Shown here one piece after another: positions 3,633 to 55,918 of a stretch of 64,000 nucleotides of DNA. Source of the stretch: Escherichia coli (GTDB taxonomy: Bacteria > Pseudomonadota > Gammaproteobacteria > Enterobacterales > Enterobacteriaceae). Positions within the stretch are counted from its first letter, which is position 1. Each line of letters starts with the position of its first letter. Where the stretch lies: assembly GCF_002854065.1 (NCBI RefSeq), contig NZ_CP024147.1; one strand, 5' to 3'. The notes under the pieces were generated by a model. The model did no database searches, had not been told where the DNA came from, and saw nothing but the letters and a program-made list of their open reading frames with translations. Both the position numbers and the translations under genes were made by a program.

Positions 3633-3793
3633 GTTTCTTCTATCTGACTTGCTTTTTTCCAAATTTTATTCGTTTAAAAATAAAATGTGCAGCAGGTTAT
3701 AATTTTGCATTTCGCTATTTCCGCACTTCTTATTTGCCGCGCATAATCCCTCGTTTTACAGATGCCCCTTTAATTTTGGCGAAGGATTTGTCT

Positions 3794-5224
3794 ATGGCTG
3801 GGAATGTTCAGGAAAAACAGCTGCGATGGTACAACATTGCGCTGATGTCTTTTATCACTGTCTGGGGTTTTGGCAACGTTGTTAATAACTATGCCAACCA
3901 GGGGCTGGTGGTTGTTTTTTCATGGGTGTTTATCTTTGCGCTCTATTTCACACCTTATGCGCTAATTGTTGGACAGTTAGGCTCGACCTTCAAAGATGGG
4001 AAGGGCGGGGTCAGTACCTGGATTAAACACACGATGGGACCCGGACTGGCTTACCTCGCCGCGTGGACCTACTGGGTGGTGCATATTCCCTATCTGGCAC
4101 AAAAACCCCAGGCAATACTGATTGCGCTCGGTTGGGCGATGAAAGGCGACGGTTCGCTAATCAAAGAATATTCAGTCGTAGCGTTACAGGGGTTAACGCT
4201 GGTGCTGTTTATCTTCTTTATGTGGGTTGCTTCACGCGGTATGAAATCGCTGAAAATCGTCGGTTCTGTGGCAGGGATTGCGATGTTTGTTATGTCGCTC
4301 CTGTATGTGGCGATGGCGGTAACCGCGCCTGCGATTACTGAAGTGCATATTGCGACCACAAACATTACCTGGGAAACGTTCATTCCTCATATCGACTTTA
4401 CCTACATTACCACTATTTCAATGCTGGTTTTCGCGGTTGGCGGAGCAGAGAAGATTTCTCCTTACGTTAATCAAACGCGCAACCCAGGAAAAGAATTTCC
4501 AAAAGGGATGCTATGCCTGGCGGTGATGGTTGCGGTTTGTGCCATTCTGGGCTCACTGGCGATGGGGATGATGTTTGACTCGCGTAATATCCCGGATGAC
4601 TTAATGACTAACGGTCAATATTACGCTTTTCAGAAGCTGGGCGAGTATTACAACATGGGTAATACTTTAATGGTGATTTACGCCATTGCGAATACCCTGG
4701 GACAAGTAGCTGCGCTGGTATTCTCGATTGATGCCCCGCTTAAAGTGCTATTAGGTGATGCTGACAGCAAATATATTCCAGCCAGTTTATGTCGTACCAA
4801 CGCTTCTGGTACGCCCGTTAATGGCTATTTTCTGACCCTGGTGCTGGTGGCAATTCTGATTATGCTGCCGACTCTCGGCATCGGTGATATGAACAATCTC
4901 TATAAATGGCTGTTGAATCTTAACTCGGTAGTGATGCCGCTGCGTTATTTATGGGTATTTGTTGCATTTATTGCAGTCGTTCGCCTGGCGCAGAAATATA
5001 AACCAGAATATGTCTTTATTCGTAATAAGCCTCTGGCAATGACCGTCGGGATTTGGTGTTTTGCCTTTACCGCCTTTGCCTGTTTGACGGGGATCTTCCC
5101 GAAAATGGAAGCCTTCACTGCAGAGTGGACCTTCCAGTTGGCGCTGAATGTTGCAACGCCGTTTGTGCTGGTAGGATTAGGACTGATATTCCCGCTGCTG
5201 GCGCGTAAAGCGAATAGTAAATAA
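3794..5224 (+). CDS. ycaM: APC-family amino acid transporter (putative)
   Basis: ORF track extends to 3602; internal ATG at 3794 (MAGNVQEKQLRWYNIALMSF) gives the 476-aa protein; multi-pass membrane protein. Confidence 0.8.
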   Translation: MAGNVQEKQLRWYNIALMSFITVWGFGNVVNNYANQGLVVVFSWVFIFALYFTPYALIVGQLGSTFKDGKGGVSTWIKHTMGPGLAYLAAWTYWVVHIPYLAQKPQAILIALGWAMKGDGSLIKEYSVVALQGLTLVLFIFFMWVASRGMKSLKIVGSVAGIAMFVMSLLYVAMAVTAPAITEVHIATTNITWETFIPHIDFTYITTISMLVFAVGGAEKISPYVNQTRNPGKEFPKGMLCLAVMVAVCAILGSLAMGMMFDSRNIPDDLMTNGQYYAFQKLGEYYNMGNTLMVIYAIANTLGQVAALVFSIDAPLKVLLGDADSKYIPASLCRTNASGTPVNGYFLTLVLVAILIMLPTLGIGDMNNLYKWLLNLNSVVMPLRYLWVFVAFIAVVRLAQKYKPEYVFIRNKPLAMTVGIWCFAFTAFACLTGIFPKMEAFTAEWTFQLALNVATPFVLVGLGLIFPLLARKANSK

Positions 5225-5391
5225 TTATTGTGGTCGGTGACGCTGACTCTGGCAGATCTGACCCGTTTTTACATAATCGAGAAATGCGCGCAAGCCGCAG
5301 GACATATACTGGCGGTTTGGGTAATACATTTGGAAGCTGTGCTGTAAGGGCGTTAGAAATAGAGCTCTGAATTATTTATGCAGCGCGGAAT

Positions 5392-19206: not shown

Positions 19207-19231
19207 GTTTTTACTCAAACTTGAACGCGAG

Positions 19232-19257
19232 AAAAGCACCTGTCGGGTGCTTTTTTC
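19232..19257 (+). terminator. intrinsic terminator after ihfB
   Basis: AAAAGCACC-tgtcg-GGTGCTTTTTT. Confidence 0.7.
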
Positions 19258-19412
19258 ATTTCTCTAATCTGGAACTGGAAGCTGCCTCGCAGAGTTTTGA
19301 GCAGTTTTCACCCTCTCGTTAAATTCTTCTGAATGTGCCTCGGGGAACGCAAAATTCCCACCAGACAACCGCTCAACAAAGTTGCACACTTTCCATAAAC
19401 AGGGAGGGGTGC

Positions 19413-21663
19413 ATGAAAATAACGACAGTCGGCGTATGCATAATTTGCGGAATTTTTCCGTTGCTGATTTTGCCCCAATTGCCTGGGACATTAACCCTTG
19501 CGTCTCTGACCGTCTTCGCCTGCGTACTGGTATTTATCCCTTTTAAAACCGTCCGTTATATCGCGCTGACGTTGCTGTTTTTCGTTTGGGGCATATTAGC
19601 AGCAAAGCAAATTTTGTGGGCAGGAGAAACCTTAACTGGCGCGACGCAGGATGCAATTGTTGAGATCACTGCTACTGACGGTATGACCACTCATTACGGT
19701 CAAATTACTCATCTACAAGGTCGACGTATATTCCCTGCGCCAGGCCTCGTGCTGTATGGCGAATATCTTCCGCAAGCGGTTTGTGCTGGACAACAATGGT
19801 CAATGAAACTCAAAGTTCGTGCCGTTCATGGTCAACTTAATGATGGCGGCTTTGATAGCCAGCGTTATGCCATTGCCCAGCATCAGCCGCTCACCGGCCG
19901 TTTTCTGCGGGCAAGTGTCATTGAACCGAATTGTAGCCTGCGTGCACAGTATCTGGCGTCACTACAAACAACGCTGCAACCCTATATGTCTTGGTTTAGG
20001 TATGGGGGAACGGTTATCCGTCCCTAAAGAAATCAAAAATATCATGCGTGATACTGGAACGGCGCATTTAATGGCGATATCGGGATTGCACATCGCTTTT
20101 GCGGCGTTGCTGGCTGCCGGACTCATTCGCAGTGGACAAATTTTTCTGCCTGGGCGCTGGATCCACTGGCAAATGCCATTAATTGGCGGAATCTGCTGTG
20201 CTGCTTTTTATGCCTGGCTGACGGGAATGCAACCTCCTGCATTGCGTACCGTTGTGGCGCTTGCTACGTGGGGAATGCTTAAGTTAAGTGGGCGACAGTG
20301 GAGTGGCTGGGATGTATGGATATGTTGTCTGGCGGCAATTTTGCTGATGGATCCTGTTGCCATTCTCTCGCAAAGTTTATGGCTCTCTGCCGCTGCGGTC
20401 GCGGCATTGATATTTTGGTATCAGTGGTTTCCCTGTCCTGAGTGGCAACTGCCGCCGGTATTGCGTGCAGTTGTTTCCCTCATTCATTTGCAACTGGGAA
20501 TCACACTTCTGCTTATGCCCGTGCAAATCGTCATATTTCATGGCATTAGTCTGACCTCGTTTATTGCAAATCTATTAGCAATTCCCTTGGTGACATTTAT
20601 CACGGTTCCGTTGATCCTCGCCGCGATGGTTGTGCATTTAAGCGGGCCGTTAATCCTGGAGCAAGGGTTATGGTTTCTTGCCGACCGGTCTTTGGCTTTA
20701 CTTTTCTGGGGGTTAAAGAGTTTGCCAGAAGGGTGGATCAACATTGCTGAACGTTGGCAATGGCTATTATTTTCCCCATGGTTCTTACTGGTGGTATGGC
20801 GATTAAACGCCTGGCGAACGTTGCCAGCAATGTGTGTGGCTGTAGGCTTGCTGATGTGCTGGCCGCTGTGGCAAAAACCTCGACCTGACGAGTGGCAAGT
20901 GTACATGCTTGATGTCGGGCAAGGGCTGGCAATGGTGATAGCCAGAAACGGCAAAGCGATTCTCTATGACACGGGACTGGCCTGGCCCGAAGGGGATAGT
21001 GGGCAACAACTGATTATCCCCTGGCTCCACTGGCATAATCTTGAACCGGAAGGCGTTATTCTGAGCCATGAACATCTGGATCACCGGGGAGGGCTGGATT
21101 CAATATTGCACACATGGCCGATGTTATGGATCAGAAGTCCGTTAAACTGGGAACATCATCAGCCCTGTGTGCGTGGCGAAGCGTGGCAATGGCAAGGATT
21201 GCGTTTCAGTGCGCACTGGCCTTTACAAGGTAGCAACGATAAAGGAAATAACCATTCCTGTGTGGTTAAGGTTGATGACGGGACGAATAGCATTCTTCTA
21301 ACCGGTGATATTGAAGCCCCAGCTGAACAAAAGATGCTAAGCCGTTACTGGCAGCAAGTGCAGGCAACATTGCTTCAGGTACCTCACCATGGCAGTAATA
21401 CCTCATCATCGTTGCCATTAATTCAGCGAGTGAATGGAAAAGTGGCATTCGCATCGGCATCGCGCTATAACGCATGGCGACTGCCCTCTAACAAAGTTAA
21501 GCATCGCTATCAACAGCAAGGTTATACGTGGCTTGATACTCCTCATCAGGGGCAAGTAACGGTCGATTTTTCAGCGCAAGGCTGGCGGATTAGCAGCCTC
21601 AGGGAGCAAATTTTACCTCGTTGGTATCATCAGTGGTTTGGCGTGCCAGTGGATAACAGGTAG
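19413..21663 (+). pseudogene. ycaI: ComEC/Rec2-family inner membrane protein, apparently frameshifted
   Basis: N-terminal part in one frame (ATG 19413 to TAA 20025-20027), remainder in the +1 frame (open to 21663) carrying ...LGLGMGERLSVPKE...TGTAHLMAISGLH and the metallo-beta-lactamase motif HEHLDHRGG; the two frames overlap around 19990-20027. Confidence 0.6.
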
Positions 21664-21699
21664 AATATGCGGCTATTTCAACAAATGCTGGTTTTTTGA

Positions 21700-23448
21700 A
21701 TGCATAACGACAAAGATCTCTCTACGTGGCAGACATTCCGCCGACTGTGGCCAACCATTGCGCCTTTTAAAGCGGGTCTGATCGTGGCGGGCGTAGCGTT
21801 AATCCTCAACGCAGCCAGCGATACCTTCATGTTATCGCTCCTTAAGCCACTTCTTGATGATGGCTTTGGTAAAACAGATCGCTCCGTGCTGGTGTGGATG
21901 CCGCTGGTGGTGATCGGGCTGATGATTTTGCGTGGTATCACCAGCTATGTCTCCAGCTACTGTATCTCCTGGGTATCAGGAAAGGTGGTAATGACCATGC
22001 GTCGCCGCCTGTTTGGTCACATGATGGGAATGCCGGTTTCATTCTTTGACAAACAGTCAACGGGTACGCTGTTGTCACGTATCACCTACGATTCCGAACA
22101 GGTTGCTTCTTCCTCTTCTGGCGCACTGATTACTGTTGTGCGTGAAGGTGCGTCGATCATCGGCCTGTTCATCATGATGTTCTATTACAGTTGGCAATTG
22201 TCGATCATTTTGATTGTGCTGGCACCGATTGTTTCGATTGCGATTCGCGTAGTATCGAAGCGTTTTCGCAACATCAGTAAAAACATGCAGAACACCATGG
22301 GGCAGGTGACCACCAGCGCTGAACAAATGCTGAAAGGCCATAAAGAAGTATTGATTTTCGGTGGTCAGGAAGTGGAAACGAAACGCTTCGATAAAGTCAG
22401 CAACCGAATGCGTCTTCAGGGGATGAAAATGGTTTCAGCCTCTTCCATCTCTGATCCGATCATTCAGCTGATCGCCTCTTTGGCGCTGGCGTTTGTTCTG
22501 TATGCGGCGAGCTTCCCAAGTGTCATGGATAGCCTGACTGCCGGTACGATTACCGTTGTTTTCTCTTCAATGATTGCACTGATGCGTCCGCTGAAATCGC
22601 TGACTAACGTTAACGCCCAGTTCCAGCGCGGTATGGCGGCTTGTCAGACGCTGTTTACCATTCTGGACAGTGAGCAGGAGAAAGACGAAGGTAAGCGCGT
22701 GATCGAGCGTGCGACTGGCGACGTGGAATTCCGCAATGTCACCTTTACTTATCCGGGACGTGACGTACCCGCCTTGCGTAACATCAACCTGAAAATTCCG
22801 GCAGGGAAGACGGTTGCTCTGGTTGGACGCTCTGGTTCAGGTAAATCAACCATCGCCAGCCTGATCACGCGTTTTTACGATATTGATGAAGGCGAAATCC
22901 TGATGGATGGTCACGATCTGCGCGAGTATACCTTGGCGTCGTTACGTAACCAGGTTGCTCTGGTGTCGCAGAATGTCCATCTGTTTAACGATACGGTTGC
23001 TAACAACATTGCTTACGCACGGACTGAACAGTACAGCCGTGAGCAAATTGAAGAAGCGGCGCGTATGGCCTACGCCATGGACTTCATCAATAAGATGGAT
23101 AACGGTCTCGATACAGTGATTGGTGAAAACGGCGTGCTGCTCTCTGGCGGTCAGCGTCAGCGTATTGCTATCGCTCGAGCCTTGCTGCGTGATAGCCCGA
23201 TTCTGATTCTGGATGAAGCTACCTCGGCTCTGGATACCGAATCCGAACGTGCGATTCAGGCGGCACTGGATGAGTTGCAGAAAAACCGTACCTCTCTGGT
23301 GATTGCCCACCGCTTGTCTACCATTGAAAAGGCAGACGAAATCGTGGTCGTCGAGGATGGTGTCATTGTGGAACGCGGTACGCATAACGATTTGCTTGAG
23401 CACCGCGGCGTTTACGCGCAACTTCACAAAATGCAGTTTGGCCAATGA
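21700..23448 (+). CDS. msbA: lipid A ABC exporter (flippase)
   Basis: 582-aa [27 protein letters not shown]...; Walker [13 protein letters not shown] signature LSGGQRQR. Confidence 0.95.
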
Positions 23449-54122: not shown

Positions 54123-54587
54123 ATGTATAGAACTCACCGACAACACAGCCTGTTAAGCTCTGGTGGCGTGCCATCGTTTATTGGTGGGCTGGTGGTGTTT
54201 GTGTCGGCAGCGTTCAATGCACAAGCTGAAACCTGGTTCGATCCAGCCTTTTTCAAAGATGATCCCTCAATGGTGGCCGATTTGTCTCGTTTCGAAAAAG
54301 GACAAAAAATAACGCCAGGGGTTTATCGTGTCGATATTGTTCTGAATCAGACAATTGTAGATACGCGCAACGTCAATTTTGTTGAGATAACGCCAGAGAA
54401 GGGGATTGCCGCCTGTTTGACGACTGAAAGCCTGGATGCAATGGGCGTGAATACTGATGCATTTCCGGCTTTTAAACAACTGGACAAACAAGCGTGTGCG
54501 CTATTGGCGGAGATTATTCCGGATGCCAGCGTAACTTTTAATGTGAATAAACTCCGTCTGGAAATTTCAGTACCGCAAATTGCCATC
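54123..54587 (+). pseudogene. elfC: fimbrial usher, N-terminal fragment interrupted by IS2
   Basis: ORF starts MYRTHRQHSLLSSGG... and is stopped by TAG 54588-54590, the first three bases of the inserted IS2. Confidence 0.8.
54583..54587. repeat. IS2 target-site duplication (CCATC), left copy
   Basis: CCATC immediately precedes the IS2 end and recurs at 55919-55923. Confidence 0.8.
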
Positions 54588-54629
54588 TAGACTGGCCCCC
54601 TGAATCTCCAGACAACCAATATCACTTAA
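54588..54629. repeat. IS2 terminal inverted repeat (transposase-proximal end)
   Basis: Imperfect match to the reverse complement of 55877-55918, sharing TCCAGACA and ATCACTTAA blocks. Confidence 0.6.
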
Positions 54630-54678
54630 ATAAGTGATAGTCTTAATACTAGTTTTTAGACTAGTCATTGGAGAACAG

Positions 54679-55044
54679 ATGATTGATGTCTTAGGGCCGG
54701 AGAAACGCAGACGGCGTACCACACAGGAAAAGATCGCAATTGTTCAGCAGAGCTTTGAACCGGGGATGACGGTCTCCCTCGTTGCCCGGCAACATGGTGT
54801 AGCAGCCAGCCAGTTATTTCTCTGGCGTAAGCAATACCAGGAAGGAAGTCTTACTGCTGTCGCCGCCGGAGAACAGGTTGTTCCTGCCTCTGAACTTGCT
54901 GCCGCCATGAAGCAGATTAAAGAACTCCAGCGCCTGCTCGGCAAGAAAACGATGGAAAATGAACTCCTCAAAGAAGCCGTTGAATATGGACGGGCAAAAA
55001 AGTGGATAGCGCACGCGCCCTTATTGCCCGGGGATGGGGAGTAA
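54679..55044 (+). CDS. insC: IS2 OrfA / InsC (HTH DNA-binding)
   Basis: 121 aa [56 protein letters not shown]... Confidence 0.9.
54996..55002 (+). promoter_or_regulatory. A6G slippery heptamer (programmed -1 frameshift site of IS3-family transposase)
   Basis: AAAAAAG at the insC/insD overlap, where the insD frame opens. Confidence 0.6.
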
Positions 55045-55907
55045 GCTTAGTCAGCCGTTGTCTCCGGGTGTCGCGTGCGCAGTTGCACGTCATTCTCAGA
55101 CGAACCGATGACTGGATGGATGGCCGCCGCAGTCGTCACACTGATGATACGGATGTGCTTCTCCGTATACACCATGTTATCGGAGAGCTGCCCACGTATG
55201 GTTATCGTCGGGTATGGGCGCTGCTTCGCAGACAGGCAGAACTTGATGGTATGCCTGCGATCAATGCCAAACGTGTTTACCGGATCATGCGCCAGAATGC
55301 GCTGTTGCTTGAGCGAAAACCTGCTGTACCGCCATCGAAACGGGCACATACAGGCAGAGTGGCCGTGAAAGAAAGCAATCAGCGATGGTGCTCTGACGGG
55401 TTCGAGTTCTGCTGTGATAACGGAGAGAGACTGCGTGTCACGTTCGCGCTGGACTGCTGTGATCGTGAGGCACTGCACTGGGCGGTCACTACCGGCGGCT
55501 TCAACAGTGAAACAGTACAGGACGTCATGCTGGGAGCGGTGGAACGCCGCTTCGGCAACGATCTTCCGTCGTCTCCAGTGGAGTGGCTGACGGATAATGG
55601 TTCATGCTACCGGGCTAATGAAACACGCCAGTTCGCCCGGATGTTGGGACTTGAACCGAAGAACACGGCGGTGCGGAGTCCGGAGAGTAACGGAATAGCA
55701 GAGAGCTTCGTGAAAACGATAAAGCGTGACTACATCAGTATCATGCCCAAACCAGACGGGTTAACGGCAGCAAAGAACCTTGCAGAGGCGTTCGAGCATT
55801 ATAACGAATGGCATCCGCATAGTGCGCTGGGTTATCGCTCGCCACGGGAATATCTGCGGCAGCGGGCTTGTAATGGGTTAAGTGATAACAGATGTCTGGA
55901 AATATAG
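55002..55907 (+). CDS. insD: IS2 OrfB / InsD (DDE transposase catalytic domain)
   Basis: 301-aa ORF in the -1 frame relative to insC ([34 protein letters not shown]...). Confidence 0.9.
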
Positions 55908-55918
55908 GGGCAAATCCA
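55877..55918. repeat. IS2 terminal inverted repeat (distal end)
   Basis: Reverse complement matches 54588-54629 imperfectly. Confidence 0.6.

Follow-up and report, generated by a model that had tools for sequence, protein, structure and literature searches.

A 14-bp deletion splits the ComEC/Rec2 homologue ycaI across two reading frames in one clonal lineage of Escherichia coli

In the Escherichia coli genome analysed here, ycaI has lost 14 bp within its coding region, and it is highly probable that this single event has inactivated the gene in the strain's clonal lineage, leaving an ordinary strain-specific pseudogene. The deletion is a genuine allele that is shared by descent within one clonal lineage. 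It is already present in public genomes, where it is annotated as two coding sequences. Judging from the sequence, loss of function of a non-essential gene is the most likely outcome, and the allele appears to be nearly neutral. Throughout the text, the window denotes the whole stretch of 64,000 nucleotides that was analysed, and all coordinates are positions within it.

Results

Organization of the ycaI locus

In the window, ycaI is flanked by rpsA and ihfB on the upstream side and by msbA and lpxK on the downstream side. This order, rpsA-ihfB-ycaI-msbA-lpxK, is the expected one, as the annotated neighbours in four reference genomes are collinear with the window. A preliminary description of this DNA had stated that the frame opened by ATG 19413 is closed by TAA 20025-20027 and that the rest of the protein lies in the +1 frame up to 21663. 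The list of open reading frames and the raw sequence both agree with this. The ends of the first frame were given correctly, but its length of 205 codons had the stop counted in, and the number of sense codons is 204. The parts of the locus are as follows.

19413..20027, + strand: 5' fragment of ycaI, native up to codon 192 (ATG 19986-19988) and followed by 12 codons out of frame (SWFRYGGTVIRP) and the TAA stop
19491..19883, + strand: DUF4131/OB-fold region (aa 27-157) of the 5' fragment, which also carries the N-terminal TM helices
19988..19990, + strand: deletion junction, at which TGGAATGCGGTTAT is missing at 19988|19989 or, equivalently, GGAATGCGGTTATT at 19989|19990
19990..21663, + strand: 3' fragment of ycaI, 557 codons in the +1 frame without an internal stop
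about 19999-20802, + strand: Competence domain (Pfam) in the 3' fragment
about 20911-21450, + strand: metallo-beta-lactamase domain with HEHLDH at 21067-21084

The +1 frame contains no stop from 19819 until the one ending at 21663, and it encodes LGLGMGER (19990-20013), TGTAHLMAISGLH (20053-20091) and the HEHLDH motif. Past codon 204, frame 1 is interrupted by 30 stops over the gene, and frame 2 carries 11 stops 5' of the deletion junction. Hence, neither frame alone can encode YcaI. Native homology in frame 1 ends with ...LQPYM (19988) and is picked up in frame 2 at LGLGMGER (19990), within two codons of the place where the frame switch had been located before.

The 14-bp deletion

For a detailed view of the lesion, the window was aligned with the two genomes that match its junction, CUWW06 and 100416, and with two intact alleles, those of O157:H7 TR01 and of a K-12-like strain. 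Relative to both intact alleles the window has a gap of 14 bp: the intact sequence reads ...CCCTATATG TGGAATGCGGTTAT TCTTGGTTTAGG..., that of the window ...CCCTATATG TCTTGGTTTAGG.... The placement of the gap is ambiguous by 1 bp owing to one shared T (1 bp of microhomology), and the junction 30-mer of the deletion allele is AACCCTATATGTCTTGGTTTAGGTATGGGG. Codons 193-197 (WNAVI) are removed. Losing 14 bases puts the downstream part into the +1 frame, which accounts for the two-frame arrangement of ycaI. When the 14 bp are put back in silico, an ORF of 754 aa without a stop is obtained, whose product differs at 5 residues from the O157:H7 TR01 protein, encoded by the closest intact allele, and at 24 from that of the K-12-like strain.

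In the preliminary description, the TTT run at 19995-19997 was given as the approximate site of the shift, which implied a single-base event of the homopolymer type. Such a slip is ruled out, as the run is the same in every aligned allele and the real difference is the 14-bp gap, located 6-8 nt upstream of it. It had also been considered that the reference might have the same nucleotide sequence here; the reference is not identical and carries 14 extra bases. As to the origin of the gap, a deletion between direct repeats was rejected: the sole nearby repeat, CGGTTAT, occurs twice in the intact allele at a spacing of 29 nt, and recombination between the copies would drop 29 bp.

Domain content of the two fragments

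The E. coli orthologue of rec2/comEC is ycaI, according to PMC1635313 and PMC7494812. Intact YcaI has the Pfam layout DUF4131 (OB-fold region) at 27-157, Competence at 201-467 and Lactamase_B at 505-686. In the 3' fragment the Competence domain (PF03772) scores 183 bits over profile positions 2-266 of 270, and Lactamase_B scores 84.6 bits with the HxHxDH motif present as HEHLDH. DUF4131 reaches 26.6 bits in the 5' fragment, which is under the gathering score of 31.6, and intact K-12 YcaI is likewise under it with 23.3 bits; the N-terminal DUF4131/OB-fold region is, however, covered by the family models NF008580 and TIGR00361.

The repaired protein scores 1310.8 bits on NF008580 (cutoff 969; positions 3-757) and matches TIGR00361 end to end with 1107.7 bits. 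As encoded, the 5' fragment scores 267.6 bits on NF008580 (positions 3-198), and the 3' fragment scores 1013.9 bits (positions 204-757), above the cutoff, and covers positions 134-663 of TIGR00361. The deletion thus removes NF008580 positions 199-203, and the break falls between the OB-fold module and the channel domain. A full-length match of a single polypeptide to the ComEC/Rec2 equivalogs TIGR00361 and NF008580 is not given by any ORF as encoded. Since no single ORF covers the ComEC/Rec2 model, the locus is a disrupted member of this family, i.e. a pseudogene. The earlier assignment to the ComEC family and to ycaI is borne out by the profile matches and by the neighbours ihfB and msbA, and its statement that K-12 has a single ORF of about 750 aa was accurate, the actual length being 754 aa.

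Translation signals and expected products

Three further elements are relevant for expression.

19229..19257, + strand: terminator-like hairpin with T-run after ihfB and upstream of ycaI, marking the start of the ycaI upstream region
19402..19409, + strand: native Shine-Dalgarno (SD) sequence of ycaI (GGGAGGGG), intact, with an anti-SD duplex of -11.6 kcal/mol
19995..20000, + strand: codon pair UUU-AGG in frame 1, a product of the deletion; speculative leak site read from the sequence

No sigma-70 consensus promoter was found between the hairpin and the ATG of ycaI. A CRP-S (Sxy-dependent) site was considered for the same region and rejected. The best CRP-S-like match upstream of ycaI, TGGAAGCTGCCTCGCA at 19276-19291, has 2 mismatches and is a half-match; matches of this kind are at chance level, with 49 in the window versus 43 expected. 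Cameron and Redfield 2006 list rec2 orthologues and, in the accessible part of the article, give no site for E. coli ycaI (PMC1635313).

Translation from the intact native start would yield a stub of 204 aa, comprising three N-terminal TM helices, the OB-fold region and a nonsense tail of 12 residues. The Competence channel and the metallo-beta-lactamase nuclease domains have neither a start codon nor a ribosome-binding site of their own. Presumably little or no channel/nuclease protein is made, and the lineage is most likely devoid of a functional ComEC, the inner-membrane DNA-import channel. A nonsense mutant of ycaI shows normal log-phase growth (PMC12844161), and the laboratory phenotype of intact E. 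coli YcaI is weak or debated (PMC6135910, PMC3330819). We propose that the allele persists and has begun drifting because ycaI is non-essential.

Possible residual function

An alternative is that ycaI is split but still working, with the 3' fragment produced by reinitiation or translational coupling and the Competence and metallo-beta-lactamase protein acting alone or together with the N-terminal OB-fold fragment. The 3' ORF is indeed fully open with the catalytic HEHLDH kept, and with 1013.9 bits the C-terminal fragment alone exceeds the NF008580 cutoff. Two in-frame ATGs are located close to the upstream stop, ATG 20002 lying 23 nt before the TAA and ATG 20044 lying 17 nt after it. Moreover, ComEC architectures without DUF4131 occur in competent bacteria: 7 of 51 ComEC proteins from naturally competent species have Competence and Lactamase_B but no Pfam-detectable DUF4131 (PMC6299819). 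Consequently, the C-terminal fragment, if made, is not necessarily inert. No carrier examined has an added stop or indel in the downstream 557 codons; continued use of the fragment would predict the same, and so would a recent event.

The signals for translation argue against this reading. All 15 in-frame ATG, GTG and TTG codons between 19819 and 20110 were scored as possible separate starts of the 3' ORF. A credible SD sequence precedes none of them, the best duplex being -3.9 kcal/mol. The annotation as two coding sequences might point to a split but working gene. For CUWW06 and 100416, PGAP calls the 5' part "hypothetical protein" (WP_375156536.1) and the 3' part "ComEC family protein" (WP_375156537.1 / WP_446850557.1). 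However, the start of the 3' coding sequence is GTG 19942 or GTG 19915, differing between the sister genomes, and these starts are therefore guesses of the gene caller. An OB fold on the same polypeptide boosts the nuclease activity of ComEC about 7-fold, i.e. it acts in cis (PMC12455585). In addition, the private substitutions within the 3' fragment are all nonsynonymous, and the split is limited to one shallow clone instead of being a conserved arrangement. Taken together, a split but working YcaI is very unlikely.

A leaky recoding event was also taken into account. Rare AGG codons promote +1 frameshifting in E. coli, and at the junction a slippery Phe codon UUU is followed by the rare Arg codon AGG, so that ribosomes slipping by +1 would be back in the ComEC frame of the downstream part and would complete an almost full-length protein. 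The product would have SWF in place of WNAVILGL, with a net loss of 5 residues, and would lack five positions of the conserved profile (NF008580 199-203) at the start of the channel domain. In the intact alleles the UUU-AGG motif is out of frame, and it is thus an accidental by-product of the deletion. A stimulatory SD-like element upstream of UUU-AGG is absent, tRNA-Phe would have to re-pair on UUA with a wobble mismatch, and there is no evidence that recoding at this site has been selected. We regard leakage of this kind as highly improbable. A programmed frameshift as a conserved feature is excluded altogether: the combination of conserved site, slippery motif and stimulator is not present here, the two aligned intact homologues are single-frame, and the shift results from a clone-specific deletion whose 14 bp are present, by length, in most genomes.

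Across both routes, there is a faint chance that the break is incompletely inactivating, with low amounts of near-full-length ComEC arising via the UUU-AGG slip, or a Competence and nuclease fragment via the ATGs within about 25 nt of the stop. Should this be the case, the allele would offer a natural test of whether the OB-fold module needs covalent attachment to the ComEC channel. The preferred explanation is that of a pseudogene.

Distribution and single origin of the allele

The region 19300-21750 was compared by megablast with 5,426 complete E. coli genomes, and the ycaI locus was found in 5,425 of them. With a junction query of 201 bases, an identity of at least 99% was obtained in only 2 of the 5,426, CUWW06 (Thailand, wastewater) and 100416 (the Gambia, stool). 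In about 5,420 of the 5,426, 215 subject bases correspond to the 201 query bases, a length that fits the presence of the 14 bp. The window itself is neither of the two carriers; its ycaI differs at 2 positions from that of CUWW06 and at 3 from that of 100416. Two further assemblies contain the same junction: GCA_027695005.1, with a ycaI identical to that of CUWW06 across the gene, and GCA_900449015.1, with a private P43S exchange. A collection of 15 billion proteins contains the exact 204-aa product with its tail SWFRYGGTVIRP, under the name "MULTISPECIES: hypothetical protein [Escherichia]". The contigs that carry it number 162 and come from NCBI, JGI/IMG, ENA and Logan, and the product is indexed in 258 blocks.

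The preliminary description had left undecided whether the shift was a genuine indel or a sequencing error. Its first option holds, and the second is ruled out by the occurrence of one junction in five independent assemblies. That the ycaI of this strain is intact and the 14 bp were dropped during assembly is next to impossible. The junction recurs in four further assemblies, which were produced independently and stem from different countries, and the frameshifted product is known from 162 contigs of several sources. Moreover, the TTT homopolymer shows no change, and sequencing platforms do not typically lose 14 bp from non-repetitive sequence.

Over a flank of 24 kb, the identity of the window is 100.0% with either carrier genome and 99.5% with the next best genome. 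Between the window and CUWW06 there are 8 SNPs in 61.9 kb; between the window and 100416 there are 16 mismatches in the 54.6-kb block upstream of an IS2 element and 3 in the 8.1 kb downstream of it. Differences in insertion sequences add to these SNPs. The near-identity of the carriers over the flanks indicates a shallow clone in which the deletion was inherited and did not recur.

Substitutions in ycaI

The five carriers have four private substitutions in ycaI: 19539 (P to S), 20768 (S to L), 20807 (N to S) and 21658 (G to R). All four are nonsynonymous, which is not distinctive since most recent SNPs in the neighbouring genes are nonsynonymous too. In a comparison of three genomes over 54.6 kb, ycaI holds 3 of the 19 variable sites but only 4% of the sequence (binomial P about 0.04). 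Its SNP density is modestly raised, with P values of 0.03-0.04 that stem from tiny counts. This pattern is consistent with relaxed constraint or drift and does not prove it. The absence of further stops or indels in the carriers fits a recent event.

Intact ycaI alleles also differ from each other by about as many nonsynonymous as synonymous changes, for example 21 versus 17 codons between O157 and the K-12-like strain. This suggests that ycaI is under rather weak purifying selection throughout E. coli, intact alleles included.

Other observations in the window and the sister genomes

An IS2 element of 1,331 bp at 54588-55918 interrupts elfC, a fimbrial usher gene starting at 54123. It contains an InsC-like ORF (54634-55044) and an InsD-like ORF (55002-55907), and a 5-bp target duplication is inferred from the BLAST overlap. 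The insertion is absent from both sister genomes, in which elfC is annotated as "frameshifted". Hence, the elf usher was a pseudogene in this lineage before IS2 was inserted.

CUWW06 has an IS1 inside ycaM, which codes for an amino-acid permease (window about 3776-5224); neither the window nor 100416 has an IS1 there. Movement of insertion sequences therefore distinguishes these near-identical genomes. Between ycaM and pflA, at about 5225-5335 of the window, the sister genomes have an annotated 111-bp remnant of a LysR-family regulator. K-12 presumably has ycaN and ycaK at this place, and the lineage may have undergone a deletion between ycaM and pflA.

An internal stop is annotated in zapC of 100416; the gene is intact in CUWW06, to which the window is identical there. 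Of the Rfam families, the PyrD leader alone (RF02373; 60943-61016, + strand; 97.9 bits) attains its gathering score in the window.

Significance

For the annotation of these genomes we propose a frameshifted ycaI pseudogene instead of a "hypothetical protein" followed by a "ComEC family protein". The 14-bp junction is a handy marker of the lineage, and the carriers are natural ycaI mutants in which Sxy-induced DNA uptake or the use of DNA as a nutrient could be tested in wild E. coli. One shallow clone, with members from Thailand, the Gambia and other places, is thus without an intact ComEC homologue, which matters little beyond annotation. The loss fits the view that the E. coli homologues of competence genes are dispensable in at least some niches.

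Comparison with other ycaI alleles

The alleles of CUWW06 and 100416 share with the window the junction and an identical N-terminal product of 204 aa. What sets the window apart are two nonsynonymous exchanges of its own within the 3' fragment, S to L at 20768 and G to R at 21658; its 573-aa version of the 3' product is recorded once (WP_434057604.1).

Other lesions of ycaI are found in E. coli. In strain ST12468 the 5' part of the gene is lost and an IS1 is inserted. The members P0003, P0009 and P0011 of the N-fragment cluster have other frameshift tails after ...QPLTG and ...LSVP. These lesions are independent events that differ from the 14-bp allele in position and mechanism, and each is rarer (2-5 contigs versus 162). 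A further variant, in strain Z1322HEC0005, is an in-frame insertion of about 66 bp that results in a protein of 776 aa, to which PGAP gives the full ComEC/Rec2 equivalog name. Among the ycaI variants seen, the 14-bp allele is the most frequently recorded. All these variants are rare beside the 14,878 distinct sequences of the YcaI protein cluster, most of which have 754 aa. Thus, ycaI is generally kept in E. coli, with sporadic lineage-specific losses.

With K-12 YcaI (b0913), the ComEC/Rec2 orthologue, the window allele shares the locus between ihfB and msbA, about 98% nucleotide identity and the same order of domains. In contrast to K-12, it is without the 14 bp at codons 193-197, and its reading frame is broken.
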